Positions 3,940 through 59,910 of a stretch of 64,000 nt of DNA are shown here, one piece after another; positions within the stretch are counted from its first letter, which is position 1, and every line of letters begins with the position of its first letter. Under the pieces are notes generated by a model. That model saw only the letters and a list, made by a program, of their open reading frames with translations, had not been told where the DNA came from and did no database searches. The stretch is from Eledone cirrhosa (taxonomy: Eukaryota), in contig OZ024741.1 in the NCBI GenBank assembly GCA_964016885.1, positions 98,208,001 to 98,272,000 on the forward strand. The letters are read 5' to 3'. The translations under genes and the position numbers were made by a program.

Positions 3940-5124
3940 ATAATACTGGGCCCGTTTCAGACGAAGTGAACGATAACATAGAGTTTGATTTAAACGAATA
4001 TCCACTGTACTTCCATAAACGCCCACAACGTTCGTTCGCCCATTGAGGCAGGCACTAAATATAATGTGCCAACGAACTCCTGCTTCATTCTCACTAAACT
4101 CACTTATATTCTGCAGGGGACTATAAATGTATAATACACACTCAAATATTATATATTATTGTCCAAACGCGTGGATGACAATGAATGTTTATTGGATTTC
4201 ATGTTTTTCTTGGATGAGAAACGATAACGTCCAAGGTATTTGAAGGATAACAATCATAGTAGCGGTTTGAGATATTTCAGTTTTTATAGTACAAAAATAT
4301 ATCATCTTTTGTATTAATAACTGTTCGCTTTACCAGTGGCATTTGAATTAAATCCTTTCCGTTCGAAATAAAAAATCTAATAGTGGATAAATTTTGTTTC
4401 GAATCTTACACATAAATGTTGTGCTTTCAACAGAAATTAATCTTAACTATTCTAGACTTACCACTAATACAATACTATCCCCCTTATTTTCATCTCCACC
4501 ATAATCTTTCTAAATCTTAAATATTTTGTACTTTAAACATATACACAGGTTTACTAAGTTGGTTCAATAAATTGGCTGTATTATTTCATATGAGACATAT
4601 CTAATATATTTTTTCCCAGACGGACGTCTCGTTTCATTATAGGATTCCTACAATTTGGATGAAATTATACCAATTTATGTAGGAGCTTGTATACCATCAA
4701 TAGATATATATTCAAGTGGGCTCCTATAATTCATCAGTGGGTGCCCCAATAATACTAATATTGATAATCTAACCAACATCAGTATTTAGCGATAATCATC
4801 ATCCTCTGTGCCTGAGGTATCTGTCAGGTTGCCAGTCCAGCAGTTCTTAAGAAGTGCTCAAACTGATTCAAAAAATGAGGAAGTAAATTAGCGCCAAAAA
4901 AACAATACATGCGCATGCCAATAAATTCCGAAAGGAATTCAGGTCACGTGCTAAGAACTCAATTGGAAATTGAAAAAATATCTGTGTGTACAACATTTGA
5001 TGACACACACAGATATTTTCTCGGGCAAAATAACAGAATGAGATATAAGGAACAATCAATATTCATATATAAAAAATAAACAAAGAAATGCTAACCTTAT
5101 ACCTGGAATTTTTTCGAATCTGCT
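3940..5124 (-). pseudogene. Possible highly decayed EnSpm/CACTA-like transposase remnant
   Basis: Frameshifted fragments LDY..LVLLG, CHW(K)AN and CGRLWKYSGYSF occur in the expected order; read by eye only. Confidence 0.3.
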
Positions 5125-5815
5125 GCGCCAAGAGTAAATAAATAAATACAATATCGGAGAAAGCTTTTTAGCGATACTCCGGCCAAATTCCAACTCACTC
5201 AACAAACATTAGGAAATAAGTGATTATATTCCCAATTATGCGTTCGGGGTGCTAACTGAAAGTATTGCGTGGAAAATTGGCTGTTTTATTTCATATGAGA
5301 CATATCTAATATATTTCTTCCCAGACGGACGTCTCGTTTCATTATAGGATTCCTACAATTTGGGTGAAATAATACCAATTTATGTAGGAGCTTGTATACC
5401 ATCAATAGATATATATTCAAGTGGGCTCCTATAATTCATCAGTGGGTGCCCCAATAATACTAATATTGATAATCTAACCAACATCAGTATTTAGCGATAA
5501 TCATCATCCTCTGTGCCTGAGGTATCTGTCAGGTTGCCAGTCCAGCAGTTCTTAAAAAGTGCTCAAACTGATTCAGAAAATGAGGAAGTAAATTACCGCC
5601 AAAAAAACAATACATGCGCATGACAATAAATTCTGAAAGGAATTCAGGCCACGTGCTAAGAACTCAATTGGAAATTGAAAAAATATCTATGTGTGTACAA
5701 CAGATATTTTCTCGGGCAAAATAACAGAATGAGATATAAGGAACAATCAATATTCATATATAAAAAATAAACAAAGAAATGCTAAACTGATACCGGGAAT
5801 TTTTTCGAATCTGCT
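4569..5815. repeat. Direct duplication of about 550 bp (4569-5124 and 5274-5815)
   Basis: Near-identical blocks from AAATTGGCTGT to TTCGAATCTGCT, offset about 705 bp. Confidence 0.92.
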
Positions 5816-10132: not shown

Positions 10133-10678
10133 TTATAAATATAAGCTATCGCCGTATTTTGACTAAAGAAATTAAAGAAAATTATTTAGCCTGATAGTGG
10201 GGTTAAGAACCCTCGGAGAAATGGAAAAAGATGAGTATTGACGTACATGGGAGTCGAACCCACATATTTGGTTATCCAGACCACTGTGCTACCATTACAC
10301 CAACACATCACCCGTCTTCCTCCATTCAAATTAGAAGCTATAATCTTAGCAACTGTAAATGTCAAGTAAGAATATTTTCGAAACAGCGAGCAAGTATTCT
10401 TACTTGACATTTACAGTTGCTAAGATTATAGCTTCTAATTTGAATGGAGGAAGACGGGTGATGTGTTGGTCTAATGGTAGCACAGTGGTCTGTATAACCA
10501 AAGATGTGAGTTCGACTCCCATGTACGTCAATACTCATCTTCTTTTCCATTTCTCCGAGGGTTCTTAACACCACTGTCAGGCTAAATAATTTTCTTTAAT
10601 TTCTTTAGTCAAAATACGGCGATAGCTTACATTTATAATTTCAAACTCGCTTGCTGTTTCGAAAATATTCTTACTTGA
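10133..10678. mobile_element. Fold-back element with about 240-bp arms containing a tRNA-like segment
   Basis: 10133-10374 is the reverse complement of 10395-10638; A box TGGTCTAATGG and B box GAGTTCGACTC at about 10456-10530; the loop sequence is re-copied in inverted form at 10646-10678; TA runs on both sides. Confidence 0.8.
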
Positions 10679-23681: not shown

Positions 23682-23769
<88 letters not shown>

Positions 23770-24628
23770 CAATGATATTAAATAAATGGAAACTATATTT
23801 ATAAAACCATATTTATTCTATTATATATTTCAATGGTACCAAAACTTTGGTTCGCTCTCATCAGATAAAATACAAAGTTTGTTTATAGATTTTGACATAT
23901 CCAGGAAGAAGATCTTAACGTTTCAAATTTTTCCTGTATTTTGTCTGATGAGAGCGTACTAAAGTTTTGATACCCTTTAAATATATATAATAGAATAAAT
24001 ATGGTTTTATAAATATAGTTTCCATTTATTTAATACTAGCAGTGGTACCTGGCGTTGCACGGGATAAGGTATTTTGGAACGCGGGCCGCCAACAGACCTA
24101 ATTGTGGAAAAACTGCATGCATGGACAATATGTAAAGAAAATAAACCGAATACTCTGATTGCTGGATAATATTTAAGATTTTCCACGATGAAGCAGGAAA
24201 AATGCAGGTTTTTCACCTAATGCGGGCCCTATGCGATCAAGAAAATGATTTTTTTTATGTGAATAATATGCCTTGAAATTTCGGGGAAAACGGCTAGACG
24301 TAACGCCTCAAAAAACCTTAAAAAGCTGAACAAATGAAGCTTTTCACCTAATGCCGGCCCTAGGCCATAAAAAAGTTGGATTTTCTTTGCTCACGGTATG
24401 ACGGGGAGATTGACTAATACATAGTTACAATTTCAAGGAAATCAGTCTGATGTAACAACTTTAAAAACCCCTAAAAACCTGAAAAAGCGCAGTTTTTCAA
24501 CTAATGCAGGCCCTAGGGCATCAAAAAGTTGAATGTGCATAACACTCCGTGAAACAGAAGTAATACACGTGTAAAGTTTGAAAAAAGTCGGTTGGGTACT
24601 TCTCGAGTTTTAGGTATTCAAACTCACA

Positions 24629-24686
<58 letters not shown>

Positions 24687-25115
24687 CACACACACACACA
24701 CACACACAAATCCTCAGGGAAGTGACGTAATGCAGACATCCAGATATACAGACAGATATTATAAAGGCGCGACGTTATATGTATGTATCTATCTATCTAA
24801 AAAGAGAAAGACTAAGAATTATAGAGAGAGATCACTAACTCACCTAATGCGGTCCCTAGGGCATTGAAAATTTGAAATTTGTTTGCTCAGACACTCCGTG
24901 AAACATAAGTATTACATGTGTAAAGTTTGAAAACAGTCAGTTGGGTGTTTCTCGAGTTTTAATTTCAAACTCACACACACACACAGACAGACATCCTCAG
25001 TTTTATATATATCGATCATTGATATTATACTCCAGAAAACCAGTCGAGTGCTTCGATTCAGTTGTAAACATATATAATTGTTGAATTACCAACAAATTAA
25101 ATATCCCTTTTACTT
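23770..25115 (+). mobile_element. Short non-coding fold-back derivative of the Penelope-like family at 54082, interrupted by a Helitron
   Basis: Arms 23770-23873 and 23935-24035 (continuing at 25016) match the termini of 54082-57009; tail 25016-25115 resembles 56913-57009; CTGATGA core at 23945. Confidence 0.8.
24036..25015 (-). mobile_element. Non-autonomous Helitron
   Basis: Minus-strand 3' hairpin CCCGTGCAACGCCAGG plus CTAG at 24036-24039; 5' TC at 25014-25015; inserted at TTAATA^TCATTG with no TSD; internal repeats of CTAATGCGGGCCCTA. Confidence 0.88.
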
Positions 25116-25127
25116 ATATATATATAT

Positions 25128-25480
25128 AAGGAAAAAAGGTGAAATCGAAAATGCAACTGGAGTCTTTTTTTTTTTTAAATATATTTACCTGTTTCTCGGT
25201 TCTTGTGCTTTTCAAAAGTAGAATTGAGATGAGGGGTTTGTGGTTTTTCTCACATCACATATGACAAAACCCACAAACCCCCCATCTTAATTCTACTTTT
25301 GAAAAGCACAAGAACTGCGAAACCGGTAAAGGAACCAAATAAATATATTTAAAAAAAAAAGAATCCACTTGCATTTTCGATTTCATCTTTTTTCTTTATA
25401 CTTTCACTCGTGTAGGACACCTCGATTTTTTTTCATTTTGTAAAATAACCTCACTTTCTAATATATATATATATATATAT
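25128..25480 (+). mobile_element. Fold-back-plus-tail element with an eroded hammerhead-like core
   Basis: About 25128-25250 is inverted at about 25263-25400; CTT-TTGAAAA-GC...GC-GAAA-CCGGTA-AAG at about 25296-25332; flanked by TA runs. Confidence 0.7.
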
Positions 25481-27074: not shown

Positions 27075-27300
27075 GAATCGGACTACTTTCTAGTAGCACG
27101 TTAATTTTATCTAAAGACATATTTTTCAAAAAGCCAACCCGCCCGTCCCCTCAATCTATCTTATTTCTCATTCTTTCTTCTATTGAAGGACTAGCATCCG
27201 AAACGTTAAAACTCTCTTCCTGCTATATCAAGCGTTAACCTAATATATCCCTTCCATATACTGTACCGATTGTGTTGTTATTTCTGTTTACCTTTTACAT
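27075..27300 (+). mobile_element. Family B repeat (putative PLE pLTR end) with degenerate hammerhead
   Basis: CTATTGA-AGGA CTAGCA TCC-GAAA-CGTT at 27180-27207; homologous to 47384-47600 and 53836-54062. Confidence 0.7.
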
Positions 27301-30704: not shown

Positions 30705-31167
30705 TGTAGTGACTGAGATGGTCGCTTAGCAACTAGCAGTTGCCTCCCCTTAACAACTCTTCAGAGAGCGGAGGCAATATATATCCGGTCACAGACGCGG
30801 GTTGGCTCACTCTCTTTGGACCGCGGCCATGAACAGACGTGAAAGGATTCGCTCCTAAAAATATTAACCATGCTGGCTTCGTGAGGGACTATGTGAAAAT
30901 GCTCTCCTTCGGATCAAGGACGCCACGATATCTCGACTAATATGCATTCGCTTATTCCTTCGTTATTCCTGCACCGGAGAATATAATTACACTACTTCTA
31001 TTAACCCACAAGGTATTGTTTGAATTGACATTGTACATAATTTATTAAATGTTGCATTTAATAAAGGATCGTTGATTTTTTACTGTTCATCCCCCTTCTG
31101 GAGTCATTTATTTCTACAAAGAAAAACGATGTATTGTCCATTCATCCACAATCATTCGTTTCCTTTA
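30705..31167 (+). repeat. 5' LTR
   Basis: TGTAGTGACTGAG...TTTCCTTTA, with AATAAA inside. Confidence 0.92.
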
Positions 31168-31168
31168 T

Positions 31169-31187
31169 TGGTGACCACGACGTGATT
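31169..31187 (+). other. Primer-binding site (tRNA-Trp)
   Basis: TGGTGACCACGACGTGATT, complementary with one mismatch to the metazoan tRNA-Trp 3' end. Confidence 0.8.
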
Positions 31188-31236
31188 CCAATACGCGGAT
31201 ACTAAAAAAAAAAAATGTTTTCTTTGGGGGTTGAAC

Positions 31237-31267
<31 letters not shown>

Positions 31268-31649
31268 ACTCTTAAATGCAAGCCTTCTACACTGTGGAAA
31301 TTTTTTCTTTCCTGATTTTCACCGTCATTTCCTCATGAAAATGTTTTAAATGGCCGACATTTTCCCGCCATTCTGCGTGTCTTTTTCCTTTCTTCATTCT
31401 GCGTGTCTTCTTCCTTTCCCGCGCACAGTGTATATTCTTCAATCCCACCAATCTGATTGGCTGCATCGTGCCACGTGACGGCGTCTTCACCAAAAGCATT
31501 TTTTTTCTCAACCGGCCATCTTGGATTCTTCTACTGATTTCAATTGAATTCACGTGAACTGATTTCGGAATTCCAGTATAACCTTTTGGTCGTATAGCTG
31601 CTTCAAAGACATAATTCGTCCTTAAAAATTCTTCAAACCTTCGGCAATC

Positions 31650-32579
31650 ATGAATCCACATAATTTGCCGACCTTTGCAGGCGACATCAAATTATTGTTT
31701 TCGCAGCTCGAGTGCTATTTCGATTTGACCCACACCGAAAAACAGCATAAATTGAAGGTGCTTATTAACGGCCTGCCTGTTTCTTTGGCATATTCCGTAA
31801 AGGATGTTATAACGAATTTAGCTGAAGATGTAACCTATGGCTCATTAAAACTAGAAATTCTTCGTAGGAATACTAGGTCTGTGGAGAGCCGTTTTCGGGA
31901 ATTATTGGAGGATGCACAGAAGGGTAACAGAACGCCAACCTCCTATTTGCGACATCTACGTGAGCTGAGCGACTCCCAAGGAATTGATACATTCTTCATT
32001 AAACAGCTATTTTTTTCCCGTTTACCGCCAAGTGCGCAAATGGTCTTGGTCAATAATTTGGAGAGGGAGTCGTTAGATCAACTTGCCGCCTCCGCGGATA
32101 AAATACTAGAGGTGGACTCTAACAGCAGTCGGCATAATCCTTGTATGGCTTCTTCTTCTGTTCCTCCACGCAATTCTTCTGTGGTCGACAGCAAACTGTT
32201 GGAAATGATCGAAGCGCTCACCAAAAAAGTGGAGGATTTGACCGTACAACATAGAGATCCTTCTCAACGTTTAAGGTACCGTTCGCCTCCGTCTGCTATT
32301 CCTCGAAACCGCTACGAGTACCGTTCGCCACCGTCTTCTGTGCCTCGCCAACACTACACTTCAGGCAGCAGTAATTCTTCTATTTGTTGGTTAAATGTTA
32401 ACTTTGGCAGTCGGGCGCAGCGCTGTCGGGCGCCTTGTAACTATAGGAGTTCGGAAAACGCAAAGCAGAGCCACGAGGGGCGGCTAGTGAACTCCTGGGA
32501 AAATCGACCGAACCGCCATCTTTTCGTATACGACCTGCGGTCGAAAAACTTTTCCTTGTCGATACTGGCGCGTCGCTGA
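31650..32579 (+). CDS. gag: Gypsy Gag, 309-aa ORF
   Basis: LPTF..DIKLLFSQLECYF, GNRTPTSYLRHLREL, LFFSRLP and degenerate knuckle CWLNVNFGSRAQRCRAPC. Confidence 0.8.
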   Translation: MNPHNLPTFAGDIKLLFSQLECYFDLTHTEKQHKLKVLINGLPVSLAYSVKDVITNLAEDVTYGSLKLEILRRNTRSVESRFRELLEDAQKGNRTPTSYLRHLRELSDSQGIDTFFIKQLFFSRLPPSAQMVLVNNLERESLDQLAASADKILEVDSNSSRHNPCMASSSVPPRNSSVVDSKLLEMIEALTKKVEDLTVQHRDPSQRLRYRSPPSAIPRNRYEYRSPPSSVPRQHYTSGSSNSSICWLNVNFGSRAQRCRAPCNYRSSENAKQSHEGRLVNSWENRPNRHLFVYDLRSKNFSLSILARR

Positions 32580-33082
32580 GTATTTGGCCAGTCAGTTATC
32601 TCAAAAAAAACCCATCTGAATCAAATATCAATTTACGAGCAGTCAACCACACGGCCATTCGAACGTATGGGCAAATTTCGCTTCCTCTTCGGTTTAAAAA
32701 TTTGCGTCGTGAATTGAAGTGGAAGTTTACTATCGCCGACTTGCCATATGCCATTTTGGGAGCGGATTTCCTCCACCATTTTCCCTTGTCGATTGACATC
32801 CGCAGACAACGACTTTTTTATGCTAATACAGGCCTATCGTTCGAGGGTACACAGCCGGAGATCGCCACAGTAAGCCCTACTTTTTTCTTGGCTGAAGTGG
32901 GCAACCAGTATCACAGTTTGTTAAAATCATTCCCACAGCTGACGCAAGGAAGATTACGAATTGCTAGTCCGGATCATGTGATTGATCATTTTATATCCAG
33001 TACAGGTCCACCTGTTTTCTCACGTCCTCGAAGATTATCTGCAGAGAAGTTGAAAGCTGCACGTCTTGAATTCGACCACATG
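32510..33082 (+). pseudogene. pol: Gypsy protease and truncated RT N-terminus
   Basis: FLVDTGAS in a shifted frame, AILGADFL, GPPVFSRPRRLSAEKLKAARLEFDHM, then truncated. Confidence 0.85.
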
Positions 33083-33161
33083 ATCCGGACTAGCAATCCG
33101 TAATCTTCCTTGCGTCAGCTGTGGGAATGATTTTAACAAACTGTGATACTGGTTGCCCACT

Positions 33162-33303
33162 AAATAACGACGCGGGACTCTGTCGAGGCCCCGCGGTCGG
33201 AATGAGTACACTTCAAATCCGTTAACGAGGATCGACCGGAGGGCAAGTCTGGTGCCAGTAGCCGCGGTAATTCCAGCTCCGGTAGCGTATATTAAAATTG
33301 TTG
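33162..33303 (+). rRNA. 18S rRNA fragment of about 140 bp captured inside the LTR element (not a functional gene)
   Basis: GGAATGAGTACACTT..AACGAGGATC..GGAGGGCAAGTCTGGTGCCAGTAGCCGCGGTAATTCCAGCTCC..TAGCGTATATTAAA matches the universal eukaryotic SSU 530-loop region. Confidence 0.93.
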
Positions 33304-33392
33304 ATACATGCTTCCACATTTTGTAAACGACCTTGTGGGTCCTTCGCTTCATCGTTAACGATTTTTCGACAAAAAATCTGCTCCGAGACGAA

Positions 33393-33855
33393 TGTAGTGA
33401 CTGAGATGGTCGCTTAGCAACTAGCAGTTGCCTCCCCTTAACAACTCTTCAGAGAGCGGAGGCAATATACATCCGGTCACAGTCGCGGGTTGGCTCACTC
33501 TCTTTGGACCGCGGACATGAACAGACGTGAAATGATTCGCTTCTAAAAATATTAACCATGCTGGCTTCGTGAGGGACTATGTGAAAATGCCCTCCTTCGG
33601 ATCAAGGACGCCACGATATCTCGACTAATATGCATTAGCTTATTCCTTCGTTATTCCTGCACCGGAGAATATAATTAAACTACTTCTATTAACCCACAAG
33701 GTATTGTTTGAATTGACATTGTACATAATTTATTAAATGTTGCATTTAATAAATGATCGTTGATTTTTTACTGTTCACCCCCCTTCTGGAGTCATTTATT
33801 TCTACAAAGAGAAACGATGTATTGTCCATTCATCCACAATCATTCGTTTCCTTTA
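33393..33855 (+). repeat. 3' LTR
   Basis: Copy of 30705-31167 with a few substitutions. Confidence 0.92.
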
Positions 33856-35191
33856 TATTCATTCATTCTGATCATTTGTCGATAGACATGAACGCTAAAT
33901 AAAGGAAAAATAGATTTCATTGAAGTTTATGACTATACAGAAGTCGCTGAATATTTGGTTTCTTCTGATCTTTGACACGTGCAAACTCTGGGTTCTGGAC
34001 CATTTACTTATAAGTGTGTGAGCATTTACTTACACACACAACACACAACAGACAGGGAGGCATCGCAACAATTTTGTCATACTGTTTCCCTTCCTCGAGC
34101 GGATGAATAATTTGGTAACACAAGACCGGGAGTTACGATTCAAGAAGCTGTTCATTCAATTTTTCTCTTTCTGTTTTTAAACAAAATACATTATTTCCAT
34201 GTATACATTTTATGTGGAATAATCCTTTCATGCATTACAATCCTTACCATTTGTTGACACACATAATCAGTGTATTTTCCTTTCTAAACATGTGTTGTCT
34301 TCTCAAACATGCTAACTGAATATGCTTCGCTGAACAGATGTATTAAAATCAAAAATTGTCATTTGCTTTCACCAAATTGGCTTATAAATAAGGTTCACTA
34401 CTACTGTATAGTTTTAAAATATCCAAGACACCTTGGATCAGCGAAAGCTACACGAGCTCTCTTCCATGTTTACTTTGCGGCGTCTGCCCCCTCCTCCATG
34501 AGAATTTAAGTCATGACATTACGAAGATAGTTTCTCTGATTGAAAGGATTATTTTTTCCACATGGCATATTCTGACAGCGGGATTCTGCTTGTATATATA
34601 TATATATATGTGTGTGTGTGTATATATATATATATATCAAACACACATTTTCACGCGAACACACACACGTTGACGTGTACGCATACACACACACACAGGT
34701 GCATGCTCACATCCACGCACGCACGCACGCGCCCGCAAACAAACAAACAAATATAAACATAGATGTAAAAACGAATGAAAAGAGCACCGATTACTTATCG
34801 TGAAGGCTAAATGTTTTCATAATTTGATTGAGATTTGCATTACGCAATTCAAAGAAGCAAACACGCACGTTTTGGATTCCCACGAGCAGCTCTGTCTGCT
34901 TTAATCATTCTCTTGAAGTATATATATGCCCAACATTTTCAATCATTTAAATATTTAAACCAAACTAACATATTTTGAAAATTGAAATTTGTTCAACCTT
35001 TCGTGAAACTTTTTTATTTAGGGAATTTATCATTGTTGGTTTGAAACTCTGGCATATCGCATATATTAGTTCAATTGCTTGAATCGATTCTCTGCACTTG
35101 TTTTATCTCTCTAGGTGTTTACGTCCCCACATTGTTCGACTATTAAATAGTCAATCCTGCATTATATCAATTTACAATATACTAAAACTCA

Positions 35192-37057: not shown

Positions 37058-37569
<512 letters not shown>

Positions 37570-37689
37570 CGTTTCTGAATTTGTTTAGCAAGATTCTTTA
37601 TCTGAAATAGTGTGTTGAAACCGATATTGTTATACTTTGGGAGGGTCATGTTGCCAATAAGACACACACGCACCAGTTGCTTTCACTTC

Positions 37690-38182
37690 AATTTATTATA
37701 TATTTATAAATTTATAAATTTATAAATTTCTGGTTGGTTGGTTGGTTCCACAACCAGATAGTTGTTTATATATAGTCATAGTTCTTTCGTCACACACTCT
37801 GTGACCTCTTCAGTGACTGGGGATTCCTTTCTTTGTATCTGTGCCTGTCCTTTGTTCTGTCCTACGCCATTTTGTTTCTGTGTGTGTGTTGTGTGCTCAG
37901 TCTGCGCATGCGCCACATCCGGGTGTCTGTGTGTGTTTATGTTCATTTATTTATTTGTTTATTTACATGTTACTGGTTGGTTGTTTGTTCTATGTGTGTG
38001 TGTGTTTTCATTTTGTCCTTAATTGTAAGTTGTGATGTTGCTGTTCCACTCATATTTTCTATTTAATTTTGGTTGTAATTCTTTTATGTTTATTGCCTCT
38101 GTAATTTGTCTAAACATTGCGTCTTTTCTGTGTGTAGATTCTATTTTTATTTCTATGTTCTCTAATTTACCCTTGTGTTCTA
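37690..38182 (-). mobile_element. Penelope-like element 3' fragment (GIY-YIG C-terminus, 3' UTR and HHR)
   Basis: DAMFRQITEAINIKELQPKLNRKYEW parallels DPADRQIREASEIELRRPRLNRKNEW of the element at 57074. Confidence 0.8.
37774..37818 (-). ncRNA. Minimal type-I hammerhead ribozyme, intact core
   Basis: AGTCA-CTGAAGA-G GTCACA GAGTG TGTGAC-GAAA-GAACTA^-TGACT. Confidence 0.85.
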
Positions 38183-38420
38183 TAAAAAGTGAAATATCCA
38201 AATCTTATGTGCTTATCAACAGGAATCCAGTAAAATTAGTACATTCCACCTTCAAACATTTTGAAGGTCTGATTACACGTGGTGTAGCCAGCTATACTAG
38301 CCATCCCGTATTCCCGTACACCACGTGTAATCAGACCTGCAAAATGTTTGAAGGTGGAATGTACTAATTTTACTGGATTCCTGTTAATAAGCACAGAAGA
38401 TTTGGATATTTCACTTTTTA
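38183..38420. repeat. 104-bp inverted repeat with a 30-nt loop
   Basis: 38183-38286 versus 38317-38420, about 3 mismatches. Confidence 0.93.
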
Positions 38421-38810
38421 TTTCAATTTCATTTCGATTCTCTTTATTTTTCAATTCATGTACCATCGTTGCGAAACATATTTGGGTTTTGAAGTTCAAA
38501 TTCATCTACGGAGCGAGTTTGGATTTTGAAATTTAAATTTGTCCAGGAATCACGGCTTTTGCCAATATAAGCTTGTCTTTATTGACTTATATCGAGACAG
38601 ACAAATTGTATTCACTTTAATTAGTTTATTTCATGCTAGCTAACTTTGTCTGTTACAATACAAACACGTTTGCGTTTATCATATATATTAATATATAACT
38701 TATATTTCACTGCTCAGAAATGCCTCTTTCTTTGAGCTGATTAATTGTAAACGACTATTAGTTTAATCTCTAAATATAATATAGTATTGTATATATACAT
38801 GTATATATAT

Positions 38811-38860
38811 ATAAATGGAAAACTGAAACGAAATTTCATTTCTCACTCTTAGTACGGCTG
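38811..38860 (-). repeat. Solo terminal fragment of the 468-bp array family
   Basis: AAACGAAATTTCATTTCTCACTCTTAGTA is shared with the start of each array unit and sits next to a TA run. Confidence 0.75.
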
Positions 38861-43903: not shown

Positions 43904-44459
43904 CTGTAACTATTACTACTCTTGAAATATTATTTTTTAGACTAATTTTCGGGCTAAATGTATGCTGGTCGAATACTACTTTTAAGAGGCTGAATTTCAT
44001 TAATAGGAATATATATTAAATAATGAGGATGGTGACAACTTAAATGTCTTTTATAATGAAAATAACAGATTAAACGACAACACTAAAAAATATCAGTAAT
44101 GTATACATGCTCGCACGCTCCCGTTTCAAGTGCCAAAAGCGGCAGACATCCAGACAGCCGGACAGCCAACTAGACACACCGACAGACAGACGGAAAATCA
44201 TCTACATAGTACATACAATAGGAGGCGAGATGGTATGTAAATAGAGACTAAGTGAGCTGTGACTATGAAAACATCAACGTACCTGCTCACATCTGCTAAA
44301 ACCAACAAAACATTGCATACGATCTGTTACTAGATCAGGGAAAACATAAACAACATTTCGTATACACTTATGCGCCGGCTGTTATATGCGTGCGATGACT
44401 GAGTATGTGTGGTGTGTGTGAATGCAAACGTTTCGATAGTACTATATATAAAGGGAGCG

Positions 44460-44643
44460 GTGGATTGGCAGTTTCGGTAGAGGGTCGAACGCCATGCTTT
44501 GAAGCATAGAGTTACGTCCCTTTATGATCTGAGTTCAAATCCAGCCGAGGTTAACTTTGCCTTTCATCCTTACGGGGTCGATAAAATACAGTACCAGTAA
44601 TAGACAGAGTAATTGCTGACCTTGTGCCAAAAGAAGAAACAAT
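44460..44643 (+). mobile_element. tRNA-derived SINE S1
   Basis: B box plus core. Confidence 0.85.
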
Positions 44644-44727
44644 TATATATAAAGGGAACTGATGAGAGGTAAACGCACATACACACAAACACACGGAAAC
44701 ACATACATACATATATATATATATACA

Positions 44728-44759
<32 letters not shown>

Positions 44760-45104
44760 CACGTACACACACACACATATATATATATATTTATTTATAT
44801 ATAAATTGAAACAAAATGAAAACGAAATTTCATTTCTCACTCTTAGTATGGCACTTACTTAAATGTAAGTATGCATGTATACGAACATACACATATGTAT
44901 ACAGACGTACAGTAGCATGCACATATATATATATATATACATATATATATACATATGCATACAGGTACACATACATATATGCACGTATCAGTTTAGCGGC
45001 GCTAACGCCGCTTTGTTCGTTTGTAAACAAACTGAACAGCCTGAATTTATGCCATACGGTGTTAAGGCAACCACGTCACCTTTTTGTTCAACACTGACAC
45101 AGGA

Positions 45105-45147
45105 ACGATGTACTAGTTTCAAGCTTGTTAGCTATCATCAGCACCGT
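45105..45147 (-). ncRNA. Type-I hammerhead ribozyme, array copy 1
   Basis: ACGGTG-CTGATGA-TAGCT AACA AGCTT-GAAA-CTAGTA^-CATCGT. Confidence 0.85.
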
Positions 45148-45572
45148 TTACCCATCTGCCAGATAGTTGAACGTTCGAAAGTATATACTTTCCTTATGAA
45201 AATTAACGGCTGAGCAGCCTAATTTGCATATTGAGTGAGTTAAATCGGTCAGGCATACCGAAAACGATAAATTGAAACAAAATGAAAACGAAATTTCATT
45301 TCTCACTCTTAGTATGGCACTTACTTAAATGTAAGTATGCATGTATACGTACATACACATATGTATACAGACGTACAGTAGCATGCACATATATATATAT
45401 ATATATACATATATATATACATATGCATACAGGTACACATACATATATGCACGTATCAGTTTAGCGGCGCTAACGTCGCTTTCTTCGTTTGTAAACAAAC
45501 TGAACAGCCTGAATTTAAGCCATACGGTGTTAAGGCAACCACGTCACCTTTTTGTTCAACACTGACACAGGA

Positions 45573-45615
45573 ACGATGTACTAGTTTCAAGCTTGTTAGC
45601 TATCATCAGCACCGT
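45573..45615 (-). ncRNA. Type-I hammerhead ribozyme, array copy 2
   Basis: Identical to copy 1. Confidence 0.85.
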
Positions 45616-46040
45616 TTACCCATCTGCCAGATAGTTGAACGTTCGAAAGTATATACTTTCCTTATGAAAATTAACGGCTGAGCAGCCTAATTTGCATATT
45701 GAGTGAGTTAAATCGGTCAGGCATACCGAAAACGATAAACTGAAACAAAATGAAAACGAAATTTCATTTCTCACTCTTAGTATGGCACTTACTTAAATGT
45801 AAGTATGCATGTATACGTACATACACATATGTATACAGACGTACAGTAGCATGCACATATATATATATATATATACATATATATATACATATGCATACAG
45901 GTACACATACATATATGCACGTATCAGTTTAGCGGCGCTAACGTCGCTTTGTTCGTTTGTAAACAAACTGAACAGCCTGAATTTATGCCATACGGTGTTA
46001 AGGCAACCACGTCACCTTTTTGTTCAACACTGACACAGGA

Positions 46041-46083
46041 ACGATGTACTAGTTTCAAGCTTGTTAGCTATCATCAGCACCGT
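46041..46083 (-). ncRNA. Type-I hammerhead ribozyme, array copy 3
   Basis: Identical to copy 1. Confidence 0.85.
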
Positions 46084-46506
46084 TTACCCATCTGCCAGAT
46101 AGTTGAACGTTCGAAAGTATATACTTTCCTTATGAAAATTAACGGCTGAGCAGCCTAATTTGCATATTGAGTGAGTTAAATCGGTCAGGCATACCGAAAA
46201 CGATAAATTGAAACAAAATGAAAACGAAATTTCATTTCTCACTCTTAGTATGGCACTTACTTAAATGTAAGTATGCATGTATACGTACATACACATATGT
46301 ATACAGACGTACAGTAGCATGCACATATATATATATATATACATATATATATACATATGCATACAGGTACACATACATATATGCACGTATCAGTTTAGCG
46401 GCGCTAACGTCGCTTTCTTCGTTTGTAAACAAACTGAACAGCCTGAATTTATGCCATACGGTGTTAAGGCAACCACGTCACCTTTTTGTTCAACACTGAC
46501 ACAGGA

Positions 46507-46549
46507 ACGATGTACTAGTTTCAAGCTTGTTAGCTATCATCAGCACCGT
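46507..46549 (-). ncRNA. Type-I hammerhead ribozyme, array copy 4
   Basis: Identical to copy 1. Confidence 0.85.
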
Positions 46550-46974
46550 TTACCCATCTGCCAGATAGTTGAACGTTCGAAAGTATATACTTTCCTTATG
46601 AAAATTAACGGCTGAGCAGCCTAATTTGCATATTGAGTGAGTTAAATCGGTCAGGCATACCGAAAACGATGAATTGAAACAAAATGAAAACGAAATTTCA
46701 TTTCTCACTCTTAGTATGGCACTTACTTAAATGTAAGTATGCATGTATACGTACATACACATATGTATACAGACGTACAGTAGCATGCACACATATATAT
46801 ATATATATACATATATATATACATATGCATACAGGTACACATACATATATGCACGTATCAGTTTAGCGGCGCTAACGTCGCTTTGTTCGTTTGTAAACAA
46901 ACTGAACAGCCTGAATTTATGCCATACGGTGTTAAGGCAATCACGTCACCTTTTTGTTCAACACTGACACAGGA

Positions 46975-47017
46975 ACGATGTACTAGTTTCAAGCTTGTTA
47001 GCTATCATCAGCACCGT
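46975..47017 (-). ncRNA. Type-I hammerhead ribozyme, array copy 5
   Basis: Identical to copy 1. Confidence 0.85.
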
Positions 47018-47277
47018 TTACCCATCTGCATATATGTATGTGTACCTGTATGCATATGTATATATATATGTATATATATATATATATGTGCATGCTACTG
47101 TACGTCTGTATACATATGTGTATGTACGTATACATGCATACTTATATTTATATATATATATAGCAAAAAGTAGTTAAAAATGCAGTTGAAGTCTTTAAGA
47201 AGGTGCATTCACAATGATACATATCTTTACTGGTTTCACATATTGCATGTTATTCAAAGGTTAAGAGCGATGGAGAG

Positions 47278-47324
<47 letters not shown>

Positions 47325-47335
47325 TATATATGGCT

Positions 47336-47593
47336 GTATGTGTTTCCGTATGTTTGTGTGTATGTGTGTTTACCTCTCATCAGCATTTTTGCAAGAGATG
47401 TCAACATGAATGGACCTGTTACTTTTACCTAAACGCATTTTTTCCAATTCCATCCCGCTCGTCCCCTCAATCTATTTTATTTCTCATTCTTTCTTCTGAA
47501 ACATTAATGCCCTCTTCCTGCTATATCAAGCGTTAACCTAATATATACCTTCCATTTACTGTACCGATTATGTTGTTATTTCTGTTTATCATT

Positions 47594-47600
<7 letters not shown>
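47336..47600 (+). mobile_element. Family B repeat with hammerhead core deleted
   Basis: Matches 27075-27300 but reads CTTCTGAAACATTA where others have CTGATGAAGGAC..TCCGAAACGTTA; 47336-47383 is the inverse of 44659-44706. Confidence 0.7.
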
Positions 47601-53835: not shown

Positions 53836-54062
53836 ATGTAAAAGGAAAACAGAAATAACAACAAAATTGGTACAGTATATGGAAGGTATATATTAGGTTA
53901 ACGCTTGATATAGCAGGAAGAGGGTTTTAACGTTTTGGACGTTAGTCCTTCATCAGAAGAAAGAATGAGAAATAAAATAGATTGAGCGGACGGGCGGGAT
54001 GGAATTGGAAGAAATATCTTTAGATAAAAATAACAGCTCCATTCATGTTGACATCTCATGCA
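53836..54062 (-). mobile_element. Family B repeat with hammerhead motif
   Basis: Minus strand TT-CTGATGA-AGGAC TAAC GTCC-AAAA-CGTT-AA at about 53925-53960, a G12 to A change. Confidence 0.72.
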
Positions 54063-55334
54063 ATATATATATATAAATATACAATGATATTAAATAAATG
54101 GAAACTATATTTATAAAACCATATTTATTTTATTATATATATTTCAAGGGTAACCAAGACAAAATTGGTACGCTTTCATTAGATAAAATACAAAGTTTGT
54201 TTTATAAATAGAGACATACCCATGGAAATCATACCTTATCGGTTGGAAATTCACTGGATTGTGGAAATATATTAGGGATTATTCAAACTTATGTGTGAAT
54301 ATGCAAATGAATATGTAAATAATTGAAAAACAATCGTTTATTTAAATGACATGGAGAAAGAGAGAGAAAAAATAAGAAATATTACGAGAGAGATAGAGAG
54401 AAGAAATTAACAAGAGGATAAATAGAACTCATGTAACGTTAATTTGGGGGAACATATTTTAAGTATATATCTACTAATGGTACGTGTATTTACGATTAAT
54501 TAGTTGTTAAAATTCTTTTCTAATATAATATTTACTGTTATAAGTAGATAGAAAAATAAATAGATAGAAAAATAGATAGAAAAATAGATAGAAAAATAGA
54601 TAGAAAAATAAATAGATAGAAAAATAGATATAAAATAAATAGAAAAATAGATCAATAAATAGATAAATAGATAAATAGATAAATAGATAAATAAATGGAT
54701 AGATGGGTATATCGTGTTATAAATAATTGTTTTAATGAGTTATGAGGGATATTGGTTGATATTTAATGTAAGTAAATATTAAGTTAAATTAAATTAAGTT
54801 AACTGAGTTAATAAGAATATTTATATTTATATATATTAAAATGGGAAGACACGGAAAAAACTCCAGTTTTGTTTATTTATTCGTTAGTATGAGACTATTT
54901 TGTCAAAATAAGTATAAATGTTAAAGATATAAATGTTGAAAGATATATTTAGCCTGAATTAGTTAGTGGTTATAAATCTAATAAAAGATATTAAAAAATA
55001 TTACAAATTCGGGAAAAGTTTTTAAAAAATAATTTATAAGAGATAAGTAATTTTTTTTAAAATAAGTAATTTTCAAAAATATATGAAAAATTTAAGAAAT
55101 AAAAAATAAAAAATTAAGAATTAAAAAATATTAAAATTAAAATTAAAAATTAAAATTTAAAAATTAGGATCATATATGTATATATTTTAAGAAACTTTAA
55201 GAGGTGAAATTATAGCAAATATTATAGATATGATTAAGAGATAACAATATATTAAAACAGAGTGGATAAGATAGTTATGGAAATAAGTAGAAATATTATA
55301 AGTGTAATTATAATTTATATATAGTTCTAAACGT

Positions 55335-56220
55335 TGAATTTAGGCGATGTCTACAAGAACTAAATAAATTCGTCCTTACATTAATAGAGTTCTTAGATTT
55401 AAGTATGAAGAAAATTTCCTCAACACACAATTTGCAAAATCTAGATAAAGCTGTGTTACGGTATGCGGGTGCTTCCGAAACTATTTCTCAAGTTAAAGAA
55501 TAGTCCATATTCTTGCATTTTAAGTTCCATATCAGGTGTGAAAGAGAAGTTGAAGATTTGTTATCAAGTCTTTGGAAAGAGGATTTGTGATTATTCCAAC
55601 AAATTTTAAATTCTGTAGAAGTTGCACCTACATATTTAAATATATTATCACTGATTTTGACTGTACATTTATAGACCACGTCCTTATCTAAGCACATATT
55701 TTTTAAAGGACAGTTTCATTTAATTCTACAGTTACATTTTGCGGAGTTGGTGTTATTCGGAACGGTACTATTATGTAGGATATTACTAGAGATATTACTG
55801 CTATTTTGATTATGGTTTAAATTTCTATTATTGATTCTATTTATATTTTGTGCTATGTTCATAGTAGTAGATTAAGATAGTTTTATTGTATGTCTGTTAA
55901 AGATTAAGTGGTATCTATGGGCTTTAGGAAAACATTTATTTAGTGCTTTAACGAATAGCTTTGCTAAAGGTGTTTTAACGCTTAATGAGAATGGGGGTGG
56001 GTACCAAATAATATTTCTAGTTCTATTTTTTCTGTTAGTTTTAGAGTTTAAGTTAGATATTTTATTGAAATTATTAGTAGGGTTATTTGCCTTATCACTG
56101 TTGTCGATGTATTTAATCTTATTTACATAGCCTGCTCTATTTAAAGCTTCATTACAATATTCTGCCTTATCGACAAAAATGTGTTTATTAGCGGAGATGC
56201 GTGAAATACATTGTTGGATA
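55335..56220 (-). pseudogene. PLE linker and GIY-YIG endonuclease remnant
   Basis: IIWYPPPFS..CFPKAHRYHLIFN, CNC..CP, CLDKDVVYKCTV..KYVGATSTEFK..NH, LCVEEIFFI..LNVRTNL..CRH. Confidence 0.85.
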
Positions 56221-56811
56221 GAATTTACGTTTTTAAAATATATAAATATAAATATTCTTATTAACTCAGTTAACTTAATTTAATTTAACTTAATATTTAC
56301 TTACATTAAATATAAACCAATATCCTCATAACTCATTAAAACAATTATCTATAAGACGATATACCCATCTATCCATTTATTTATCTATTTATCTATTTAT
56401 TGATCTATTTTTCTATTTATTTTTCTATCTATTTTTCTATCTATTTATTTTTCTATCTACTTATAACAGTAAATATTATATTAGAAAAGAATTTTAACAA
56501 CTAATTAATCGTAAATACACGTACCATTAGTAGATATATACTTGAAATATATTCCCCCAAATTAACGTTACATGAGTTCTATTCATCCTCTTGTTAATTT
56601 CTTCTCTCTATCTCTCTCGTAATATTTTTTTTCTCTCTCTTTCTCCAGTGTCATTTAAATAAACGGTTGTTTTTCAATTATCTACATATTCATTTGCATA
56701 TTCACACATAACTTTGAATAATCCCTAATATATTTCTACTATCCAGTGAATTTCCAACCAATAAGGTATGATTTTCATGGGTATGTTTCTATTTATAAAA
56801 CAAACTTTGTA

Positions 56812-56872
56812 TTTTATCTGATGAAAGCGTACTAATGTTGTCTTTGTTGCCCTTGAAATATATATAATAAAA
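56812..56872 (+). ncRNA. Type-I hammerhead motif in pLTR
   Basis: TTTTAT-CTGATGA-AAGCGTAC...GTTGCCCTT-GAAA-TATATATA^-ATAAAA; the mirror copy at about 54127-54188 reads CTAATGA. Confidence 0.72.
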
Positions 56873-57073
56873 TAAATATGGTTTTATAAATATAGTTTCC
56901 ATTTATTTAATATCATTGAATATTTACTCCAGTAACTGTTGAGTGCTCTAAATCAGTTATAAACATTTATGTTTGTCGGACTTCCAACAAATTAAATACA
57001 ACTTCTACTTATATATATATATAAAACATTAAAAGGAAAACAGAGTCATGATATAAGTCAATATATATATATG

Positions 57074-59310
57074 ACGAGACAGAGGCACAGTTCACCATAG
57101 CTAGAAATAAGATAGACAAATAGTAGACCGGTAGGAAACTTGGGAGGAAACCTGGGAGGAAACCTGTAGAAGGCTTCGTTAGCCTCAAGCAGCCTACAAG
57201 GGATGGTGAGGTAGTATGTCTACCCACGGATAAGTCTGGTAGGATGTAAATAGATAGCATGCCGAACTACATCAAGGCTATGCAACCCCACATCACCAAC
57301 ACGAGCGAAATTGCACAGCAAATACATGATGGGAGAGAGAAAATCCTCAACGCTCGCATCATGATGTGGACCGACATCCTAAAGCCAAGCAGACGCACTG
57401 CCAACAACTTCCAGGCGTCTAACAATGGCATACCACCCTTGTATGGGCTCCGCAAAGACCACAAGACAGTCGACAACCCGACAACAGGACCACCAACAAG
57501 ACCCGTATGCGGAGCTAATATAGCTAGCAACTACAGGATCTCCTACTTCCTCTCAATGGTTATACGCCCCATAATCAAGATGTCCACAGATGTATGTGAC
57601 AGTACAGAGGACCTCCTCAGCAGAATCAGTGAGTGCAACAAAAACAGGAACCTATCCAACTGCATAATAGGCAGCATGGATGTGGTATCACTGTACCCAT
57701 CCATTAACATTGTTTTGCTGTGGAAAAATGTGTGGAGATGATCATTGAGAGTGAGGTGGAGTTCTGCGACGTCGACACAGACGAACTGGGCCTCCTACTT
57801 AGACTTACCTACGACACTGAATACCTAGACAGCCATGACCTTAGACGTTTCTGCCCCAGTAGACCCATAAGAGGTAGACCCCCCCACCATAACCTCAATG
57901 GCTAAAAAGACTCCCATCGGAAGGTGGATTGGGTGGACCAAAGCTATACGGACCCCCAAAACAATGATCAGGTAAGAAAAATGGTCGCACATGCAATAGA
58001 AGCTAGTATCAAAACTACCCTAAAGAGCCACATATTTAAGTTCAACGAGAAGATCTACACCCAAAATGAGGGAGCAGCCATTGGCGTCAGCATAGCTGGT
58101 GACGTTGCCAACCTTTTTATGGTATGGTGGGAAAGGAGACTTAAAGATCTCCTTAATGAGAGCGCCATAGACCTCATCATGTACTCTCGTTACGTAGACG
58201 ATATCAATATAGTTATAAGAACATCCCCACAAGAGAGCACTAACAAGTTGGATTTAGAACGTAGCACAAAGGAAAGCATCCAGCAGATAGCTATTTCCAT
58301 ACACCAGAGTATAACTGTAACTATCGACTACCCTTCCAAACACCCTAACAATAGACTACCTGTATTAGACACGGAACTCTGGATTAACACTATAGACGAG
58401 AGAGCCCAAATTCTCCACTCACACTATGCTAAACCCATGGCCTGCAAATACCTGATACTCAAAAACTCAGCAATGTCCAGTAGTGCTAAGTTTAATATTC
58501 TGATCGCAGACTTGGTACGAGTGATGAAGAACGTGTCCCGCATATGCGACCCAACAGAAATGGAAAGACACATCCAACACTTCAGCAACCGCATGCAGTT
58601 CTCTGGCTACAACCAAAGAGACAGAGTCAAAGTATACGAAGGAGCCACGGAGAAGTATAAGACCCTCATAGAACTTGACATGAAAGGAATTTGCCCATTA
58701 TACAGGAGCAAATCATGTAATAGCTTAGATAGGGCTAGACATAAGATAGGGAAAGCCACCTCATGGTACGACAACCAGAGATACCAGAGTGTCATTTTGT
58801 GGACGCTACCCCTGGAGGGAAATTAGCAAACCAGTGTAGAAAGGCCCTGAGAAAGACCCACTTAAAGATTAAGGTGGTAGAAAAGCCAGGAACCGCCATA
58901 AAATCCCTGATCAGCTAAACCTACCCTTTTAAGAAAACCCACTGTACTAATAGGAAATATATCATATGTAAGGTAAACCCCCGGATAAACTGTAAAACTA
59001 GAAACGTAGTCTATAGCATAAGATGTACAGAGGGTACTTGCAGAAACATGACAACAACATACATAGGCGAGACAGCTCGTAGCATAGGTGAAAGGATAGA
59101 CCAACACTGGGGGAACTAAAAGGACGAAAAAACGGTTCAGTACTATGCGAACATGCCAGACAAAAACACGACGGTAACATAGACAACATAGAAATAATAG
59201 AATAATATCTAAATATAGAAATGACCCAGCAGATAGGCAAATCAGAGAGGCCAGTGAAATAGAACTTAGAAGGCCAAGGCTAAACAGAAAGAATGAATGG
59301 AATAACAACA
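57074..59310 (+). pseudogene. PLE reverse transcriptase-GIY-YIG ORF, frameshifted
   Basis: PTDKSG, LYGLRKDHK, TRPVC, SMDVVSLYPSI, GAAIGVSIAGDVANLFM, RYVDDI, LPVLD, NVVYSIRC..YIGETARSIGERIDQH. Confidence 0.93.
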
Positions 59311-59617
59311 ACACCCAAACAAACAACACTGACCTAAGAGAAGTATAAATAAATAAATAAATAAATAGATAAATAAATAAATAAATACATACACAAGCAC
59401 AATAACAACACACACATATAAACACACACTAGTAAAGATAGAATACATTAACCAATACACAGTCACCCAATCACGAACACACATCAAACAAAACACTATA
59501 CACACACGCAAACGCATGCGCAAAGAAGACAACATAAAATAAACAAATAAATAAATATATAAACAGACTAAATAAAGACGGCGTAGAAAATCCAATGCAA
59601 CGGGAGGAAACAATAGC

Positions 59618-59659
59618 ACCACTGACGATGTTGCAGATGTGCAACGAAAGAACTTTGAT
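59618..59659 (+). ncRNA. Minimal type-I hammerhead motif
   Basis: ACCA-CTGACGA-T GTTGCA GATG TGCAAC-GAAA-GAACTT^-TGAT; one mismatch in stem I. Confidence 0.75.
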
Positions 59660-59862
59660 AAACTATATATATGTGTTTGTGTCTATATTGTATCTGTATT
59701 ATTTGTTACTGTTGGTCAGTCAATGGAAACATTGAGGACCGAATAAATTAGATTACCGATATAAAAGACACAGAAGCGAAAAGCGAAAACCAACCAAACA
59801 GTGAGTGTGTTCTGTTATTAATTCTGGCAATATTACACAAATATGACCCTCCCCAAGTATAA

Positions 59863-59910
<48 letters not shown>

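Follow-up and report, generated by a model that had tools for sequence, protein, structure and literature searches.

Penelope-type insertion ends on a candidate hammerhead retrozyme array in Eledone cirrhosa

We have found in Eledone cirrhosa a tandem array of noncoding, hammerhead-bearing units whose two ends have the form of a Penelope-type (PLE) insertion. The array lies in a stretch of 64,000 nt of contig OZ024741.1 (assembly GCA_964016885.1, positions 98,208,001 to 98,272,000 of the forward strand), referred to below as the window; all coordinates are those of the window, which is AT-rich and contains many TA microsatellites. Our preferred reading, to which we give a probability of about 55%, is that a non-LTR retrozyme was inserted here by PLE machinery priming from both nicks of the target and that the array was born whole. 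The involvement of PLE machinery in some form we regard as quite likely.

The array occupies the following interval:

44801 to 47029, minus strand: retrozyme array of 4.8 head-to-tail units, with the RNA 3′ end at 44801.

Tandem Repeats Finder reports a period of 468, 4.8 copies and 98% matches. The units start at 44801, 45267, 45735, 46203 and 46669, have lengths of 466, 468, 468, 466 and 361 bp and a GC content of 0.366–0.367. Head-to-tail units of a few hundred bp are characteristic of retrozyme repeats, as are the noncoding sequence, the GC content below 50% and the lack of LTR organisation (judged with no separate PBS/PPT search). One long frame of the array has no candidate homologue, with just four weak matches (identity 31–45% in the three that have values). 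The interval 44801–47156 contains no ORF for a PLE reverse transcriptase (RT) and GIY-YIG endonuclease, and the array itself is not classed as a PLE. The window holds one other piece of the unit, a solo fragment described below; searches with translated frames for further unit copies found none.

Each unit carries one minimal type I hammerhead:

45104 to 45148, minus strand: hammerhead of unit 1, predicted cut at 45111/45110.
45572 to 45616, minus strand: hammerhead of unit 2, descriptor match.
46040 to 46084, minus strand: hammerhead of unit 3, descriptor match.
46506 to 46550, minus strand: hammerhead of unit 4, descriptor match and weak Rfam HH9 match.
46974 to 47018, minus strand: hammerhead of unit 5, predicted cut at 46981/46980.

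These are five of the nine matches to a type I descriptor on both strands of the window. With what we take to be the core motif of type I, the descriptor search finds the core intact in 5/5 units, as is characteristic of metazoan non-LTR retrozymes. Read from the sequence, stem I of each array hammerhead comprises 7 bp and stem II 3 bp above a U-U pair, while stem III is self-complementary but too short to close by itself. The short self-complementary stem III suggests that the predicted ribozymes would cleave as dimers; in axolotl, motifs with a weak palindromic helix III have been reported to act as dimers (PMC7229834). No hammerhead in the window reaches the Rfam gathering score, a 326-nt TA-free stretch gives a weak HH9 match (18.5 bits vs a threshold of 52, E 0.046), and an Rfam E-value scan of 44700–47300 is dominated by TA-driven microRNA matches, with no hammerhead among the best 150 of 201. 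With this single weak match, Rfam was rejected as proof of a ribozyme. Minimum-energy folding did not produce the catalytic hammerhead fold, and in a recent study only one of nine predicted elements cleaved (bioRxiv 10.64898/2026.07.22.740005). The RNA sense was taken as minus because the hammerheads sit on the minus strand. This sense places the 3′ end at 44801 and the inversion described next at the 5′ end, in agreement with the initial annotation.

At its 5′ side the array runs 11 nt beyond stem I of the fifth hammerhead (which ends at 47018), close to the distance of about 10 nt noted initially, and switches into an inverted piece of its own unit. The features at this end and at the flanks are:

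47027 to 47029, no strand assigned: TGC microhomology at the head-to-head junction, in the centre of a short unit hairpin.
47027 to 47144, plus strand: inverted arm of 118 nt, unit positions 66–183, identical to unit 4.
44792 to 44803: left copy of a probable target-site duplication (TSD), 12 bp, in a (TA)n microsatellite; its last three bases equal unit positions 1–3.
47145 to 47156: right copy of the probable TSD; bases 47146–47150 also match unit positions 60–64.

The segment 47027–47150 is 99% complementary to 46262–46385 (BLAST E 3.6e-57). Its exact inverted match, 47027–47144, has no differences from unit 4, one from unit 1 and a 2-nt indel relative to units 2, 3 and 5. The switch at TGC is real, with 47027–47029 common to the direct and inverted sides, while the inverted piece, at first given as 124 bp, has to be shortened to 118 bp. 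The single mismatch of the longer segment is at 47145, because the TSD copy begins there. The TA run seen after the inversion is present; it consists mostly of the second TSD copy, which the initial annotation had missed. The microhomology is weak evidence by itself, with at least 3 nt expected at 6.7% of random inversion junctions in the unit. A 5′-truncated inverted arm, set head-to-head with a direct arm, is the structure of PLE-type insertions.

The 12-bp direct repeat TATTTATATATA is identical at 44792–44803 and 47145–47156 and is the longest one anchored at the junctions; its right copy starts exactly where the match of the inverted arm stops (47145). As the repeat is of low complexity, a null was built from other TA runs and TA sites in the window: 10/436 other TA runs could match at least 11 nt, and 23/2696 TA sites at least 12. 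Outside the array body the 12-mer occurs 12 times, both TSD copies counted. The unit likewise matches five of the 12 bases, and an 11-bp TSD with one substitution is therefore equally possible. Judged from sequence, the repeat is probably a target-site duplication; its 11–12 bp exceed the 4 bp that retrozyme TSDs are expected to surpass, and the combination of a (TA)n target with a short TSD is that of PLE-type insertions. ATT, the cleavage preference of the lizard PLE, adjoins only one of the putative nicks at the array insertion.

Two further features bear on where reverse transcription may have started:

44801 to 44865, minus strand: 65-nt ‘tail’, unit positions 1–65, on the direct arm and missing from the inverted arm.
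38811 to 38858, minus strand: solo fragment, unit positions 1–52 and thus almost the tail alone, sharing the 3′ end of the array and set in (TA)n.

The array ends at unit positions 1, 66 and 361 and the predicted cut is at 310–312, so an array ending at the ribozyme cut site was rejected. As neither end is at the cut site, both would be internal starts, 65 nt apart, and with internal ends the template would have been read through five cut sites, uncleaved or circular. By analogy with published PLEs (PMC11167929, PMC8557442), the 65-nt segment is interpreted as a putative tail lying between two RT start sites. No poly(A) or repeat tail is found at the array ends. The left target end could pair through 6/6 terminal bases at 11 unit sites, 10 of them in the TA block of the unit; despite these better-pairing sites, the actual first start is position 1, with just three shared bases, the caveat being that the TA block is buried in a long hairpin. 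At the second start (position 66) 5/6 target bases match, and an equal match exists at 19/466 sites. The bases of the second start lie in a hairpin loop, with a mean unpaired probability of 0.80 (top 10% of 5-mers, a post hoc figure). In terms of the 65-nt difference between the arms, a start at position 1 is seen twice and a start at 66 once.

The second instance of the position-1 start is the solo fragment, which has 86.5% identity to the unit (E 2.3e-11); the alignment stops at position 1, and the local alignment scores 67, a value that 0/100 shuffles attained. The array end at 44801 and the solo end at 38811, already noted as matching beside TA, are thus the same unit base. The solo fragment has TA on both sides, and the search for its TSD gave nothing informative, the best candidate being 8 nt of pure TA. 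By sequence it appears to be a copy of a related, older or divergent element, and a fixed 3′ end is suggested by these two copies, array and solo. A start at position 1 in both fits homology-independent initiation.

Four decayed PLE-type elements in the window serve as comparators:

54064 to 57025, minus strand: PLE-B, decayed Penelope/Poseidon-like element in (TA)n, with a ∼770-bp inverted 5′ arm (56240–57010), a ∼85-nt tail and a hammerhead at 56818.
23755 to 25129, no strand assigned: small head-to-head copy of PLE-B, split by a ∼1-kb insertion, with TA at both ends.
57250 to 59866, plus strand: PLE-A, decayed RT and GIY-YIG-like element with its short end at a TA run.
37568 to 38198, minus strand: diverged, 5′-truncated relative of PLE-A, with a hammerhead at 37813 (minus strand) and an end 58 nt longer, at a TA run.

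PLE-B, 7 kb away from the array, is built like a textbook PLE. Its frames are broken and comprise an RT end and a GIY-YIG-like part, with one homologue (E 6.8e-12); the inverted arm extends from about 56240 to 57010, and the arms differ by the ∼85-nt tail. The small PLE-B copy is noncoding and has two hammerhead-like arms with the same short and long ends as PLE-B; both copies have 15-nt flanking repeats of almost pure TA, which are little informative. The insertion that splits the small copy spans about 24036–25008, and its start resembles what we take to be a Helitron end. PLE-A has an RVT_1 match (E 1.8e-4) and 55 homologues, the best homologue of its RT frame being an Octopus vulgaris protein with 65% identity; its 3′ region has a minimal hammerhead-like motif at 59622 (plus strand), which is a loose match only. 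Pfam called GIY-YIG in 0/7 sequences, and a PDB search of the PLE frames gave weak RT matches only. The clade labels are based on RVT_1, homologues and sequence motifs; on such motifs we assume PLE-B to be Poseidon-like and PLE-A, by its linker, to be Neptune-like. Two decayed PLE families in the window have the two-end tail anatomy beside (TA)n that the array appears to have. Because the ORFs of the in-window PLEs are broken, none of them can be an active donor.

The initial annotation suggested looking for an autonomous PLE with the 3′ end of the array, and the window contains none: on the RNA strand, 0/7 PLE-type terminal regions resemble the unit, with 8 to 100 of 100 shuffles scoring as well. 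The best score of a PLE end on the opposite strand was equalled by 2/100 shuffles, among 14 such tests. A 3′ motif common to the unit and PLE-B (11/12, found by eye near the short end) was rejected as not above shuffles (24/100). The unit and the terminal repeat of PLE-B further have in common, in opposite sense, 11 nt that include an octamer-like motif (46628–46638 and likewise in each full unit; 54298–54308 and 56692–56702 in PLE-B), and this match too is not above shuffles; newt satellite 2 has an octamer promoter. In a third repeat family (27100–27298, 47389–47596 and 53838–54063), 3/3 copies have a common 3′ end, at (TA)n; by eye, the family has a decayed hammerhead-like core that is deleted in the 47.4-kb copy, and it is possibly another PLE terminus.

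The duplicated 12-mer, the target, the two arms, the end positions and the end shared with the solo fragment are seen directly in the sequence; from them we infer an RNA intermediate and the kind of enzyme. In the proposed sequence of events, (1) a PLE protein would bind a minus-strand multi-unit RNA, which could be an uncleaved multimer or a circle larger than one unit. (2) Its GIY-YIG endonuclease would nick both strands of the (TA)n site, 11–12 nt apart. (3) From the top-strand nick, cDNA synthesis would be primed at unit position 1, a fixed internal site, and the RT would run about 2.2 kb across the five ribozyme cut sites. (4) The bottom-strand nick would prime a second cDNA at position 66, in the hairpin loop and 65 nt further into the RNA, and this cDNA would run 118 nt; that the second site is a fixed one is presumed. 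(5) The two cDNA ends would join at TGC, and repair would fix the insertion with its TSD.

The inverted arm could also have arisen within the same PLE insertion by fold-back: the first cDNA would stop, anneal through its TGC end to earlier cDNA, copy 118 nt backwards and join the target by microhomology, in which case position 66 would not be a fixed start. The junction does sit in a small hairpin loop, PLE inversions by self-priming at palindromes have been proposed (PMC3846280), and at the outer end five of the six terminal bases of the target agree with the unit. This match is, however, equally good at 19/466 sites, the arm is identical to unit 4 while the nearest template, unit 5, differs by the 2-nt indel (later slippage could explain this), and PLE-B uses the same two ends in two insertions. 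As a sub-mechanism, fold-back seems to us unlikely, though it deserves some weight.

The differences among the units consist of six private substitutions over 2229 nt, a single 2-nt indel polymorphism and a variant common to several units; with six private substitutions and identical TSD copies, the insertion is young. The shared variant, at column 217, alternates over the five units as G,C,G,C,G (probability 0.016 for independent mutation) and disfavours a one-unit circle as the sole template. The alternation is compatible with a circular template of two units and with a multimer derived from a parent array, as well as with an early two-unit duplication after insertion. The last of these corresponds to a history in which PLE machinery inserted a shorter array of two or three units with the same ends, which then grew to five by unequal crossover or two-unit duplication. 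The pattern at column 217 is the trace expected of a two-unit duplication, and an unequal crossover model is discussed in bioRxiv 10.64898/2026.07.22.740005. Against later growth, 0/6 private substitutions recur at a distance of two units, a mild argument against a late duplication, and the indel order (short, long, long, short, long) is not of period two; the duplication would therefore need to have come very soon after insertion. We consider such growth unlikely on balance, if a serious competitor. The ends date the insertion only, and a count of five units at that time is presumed. The initial annotation had taken the array as one retrotransposition product of Penelope machinery: the PLE-type ends, the TSD, the (TA)n target and the inverted arm bear out the Penelope part, while the claim that the whole five units are one product did not hold to the same degree, the arrival of all five in one event being likely.

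Mobilisation of the RNA by a LINE through twin priming would also yield a 5′ inversion with an internal deletion and TSDs, and the architecture fits the published description of twin priming in its TSD, inversion and junction microhomology (PMC2837659). The array, however, has no poly(A) or repeat tail in which twin priming would start; its first start lies inside the unit, at a distance of 310 nt from the predicted ribozyme cut, better-pairing sites were left unused, and the solo fragment begins at the same base. No LINE ORF was recognised among nine frames scanned of the 66 listed. We therefore hold a LINE to be improbable.

Still somewhat less probable is a pre-existing satellite altered by a DNA-level template switch or fold-back repair, with the flanking 12-mer a chance match in TA-rich DNA. 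The inverted piece is indeed a TA-rich, strongly self-complementary block, the 12-mer is found 12 times outside the array body, and an older inverted pair flanks the locus. Such a history requires that the flanks match by chance (about 2%), that a substitution fell precisely on 47145 and that the solo start coincides, and it leaves the arrival of the array unexplained; moreover, the outer pair is 84% alike vs 100% for the arm, which marks it as a separate event. This older pair (101 nt, 84%; 44659–44759 on the plus strand and 47283–47383 on the minus strand) surrounds the whole insertion, and both of its outer ends start at the same base with CTGATGA. No TSD was found for it and no third copy in the window; it may be an earlier element into which the array inserted, or a chance similarity. 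A larger fold-back including the pair was rejected on age and on 126 bp of intervening unique sequence. An assembly or chimeric-read artefact is very improbable: near-identical tandem units and TA hairpins are difficult to assemble, but the inversion is no simple mirror (173-nt offset from unit 5), the sequence re-enters unique flank via the TSD, the units retain distinct variants and the window has no N.

The window has other repeats as well. A remnant of an LTR retrotransposon (30705–33856) has 464-bp LTRs (97.6%) with gag-like and protease frames and contains an inverted repeat (32896–33161) and a small-subunit rRNA fragment (33235–33282). A 240-bp palindrome (89%; 38182–38421), MITE-like or fold-back, lies where the truncated relative of PLE-A breaks off on its 5′ side. 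An abundant interspersed repeat of ∼190 bp, which we presume to be SINE-like, is found at 44457–44661 and at least 12 other sites; it often ends at TA, and one copy is 140 bp left of the array. Two similar tRNA-like sequences (10239–10309, minus strand; 10460–10530, plus strand) point away from each other within a small inverted repeat. A PIF1-like helicase frame at 2004–2762 (E 4e-49) is probably a Helitron remnant, and a direct duplication of about 550 bp with 94% identity covers 4569–5124 and 5274–5815.

Several points count against insertion by PLE machinery from both nicks as set out above. There is one complete insertion only, with the second start site seen once; no partner PLE similar to the unit is present among the seven in-window ends; and the 65-nt tail is longer than the 30–40 nt of published tails, though the in-window PLE tails have 58 and ∼85 nt. 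If the reading is extended, animal hammerhead satellites in general would be born whole as multi-unit arrays, when a PLE protein nicks both strands of (TA)n and, beginning at two fixed internal positions, copies an uncleaved multimer or a multi-unit circle; the intervening ∼65-nt tail would be a cis signal kept by structure and not by pLTR similarity, and would itself be mobile as a mini-element like the solo fragment. This extension we offer tentatively and at less than even odds. If true, array ends would be a genome-wide record of the mechanism and of the PLE clade that drives each retrozyme family. Genome-wide, one would predict fixed starts at 1 and 66, TSDs near 12 bp, ends off the cut site and a variant periodicity that reads out the template.

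How hammerhead satellites spread to new sites has been an open question since the newt repeats. Non-LTR retrozymes and their suspected dependence on PLEs are already known (PMC7229834; bioRxiv 10.64898/2026.07.22.740005), and the link has so far rested on shared ribozymes, co-occurrence and pLTR similarity, the latter paper basing its argument on co-occurrence and on the phylogeny of pLTRs. As to the origin of arrays, the two papers disagree, one view being reverse transcription of circles and the other local crossover. In the available portions of both there is no analysis of array junctions, inverted arms or tails, and the words ‘junction’, ‘tail’ and ‘mollus’ do not occur in the text of the bioRxiv paper as available. 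A literature search over titles and abstract openings, covering few subscription journals, returned no description of animal retrozyme array junctions or of an octopus retrozyme. The present locus holds the insertion scar itself, and this scar matches the in vitro behaviour of a PLE protein: both strands of AT-rich DNA are nicked and extended by the purified lizard protein, which begins copying at two internal positions of the RNA, the boundaries of the genomic tail. It needs neither homology to the target nor ribozyme cleavage, and uses uncleaved RNA (PMC11167929). It is a single locus that confirms an expected link between PLEs and retrozymes, and is more useful to specialists than surprising.

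Compared with known systems, the array resembles metazoan non-LTR retrozymes (PMC7229834; bioRxiv 10.64898/2026.07.22.740005) in its tandem noncoding units with one type I hammerhead each, a GC content of about 37%, the lack of LTR features, a TSD of more than 4 bp and co-occurrence with PLEs. Its U-U pair under helix II and its helix III, which is weak and palindromic, resemble the axolotl motifs (PMC7229834). Its unit is slightly longer than the 150–450 bp of PMC7229834 and within the 51–972 bp of bioRxiv 10.64898/2026.07.22.740005; its minimal hammerhead is nearer to PLE-type motifs than to canonical invertebrate retrozyme motifs, and, unlike in these retrozymes, its variant pattern disfavours a one-unit circle as sole template.

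PLEs are described with inverted 5′ copies, tails, a (TA)n bias and multicopy non-autonomous insertions (PMC8557442), and those of rotifers have direct and inverted pLTRs, a one-sided 31-bp tail and 8–10-bp TSDs, also around trans-mobilised cargo (PMC3846280). With such EN+ PLE insertions (PMC3846280, PMC8557442, PMC11167929) the array has in common tandem direct repeats, a head-to-head 5′-truncated inverted arm, a TSD of similar size and an AT-rich or (TA)n target, and its putative one-sided tail and internal RT starts would be a further likeness. It differs from them in lacking an RT or endonuclease ORF, in that every repeat is the whole element, in a tail of 65 nt vs 30–40 and in having no similarity to the in-window PLE ends. 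Non-autonomous Chlamys PLEs such as MRC1 (PMC8557442, PMC9977147) are likewise moved by PLEs, are often multicopy head-to-tail, insert into microsatellites and frequently leave short 3′ fragments, like the solo. They belong to green algae, however, use (C)n or (CA)n targets, mostly have no hammerhead and share 3′ sequence with a known autonomous partner; for the array, no such partner was found in the window. L1 twin priming (PMC2837659) offers the same two primed cDNAs, inversion, TSD and junction microhomology. In L1, however, pairing within the poly(A) tail provides the start, and the second site varies, whereas the first start of the array is internal, shares three bases with the target and recurs in the solo fragment.
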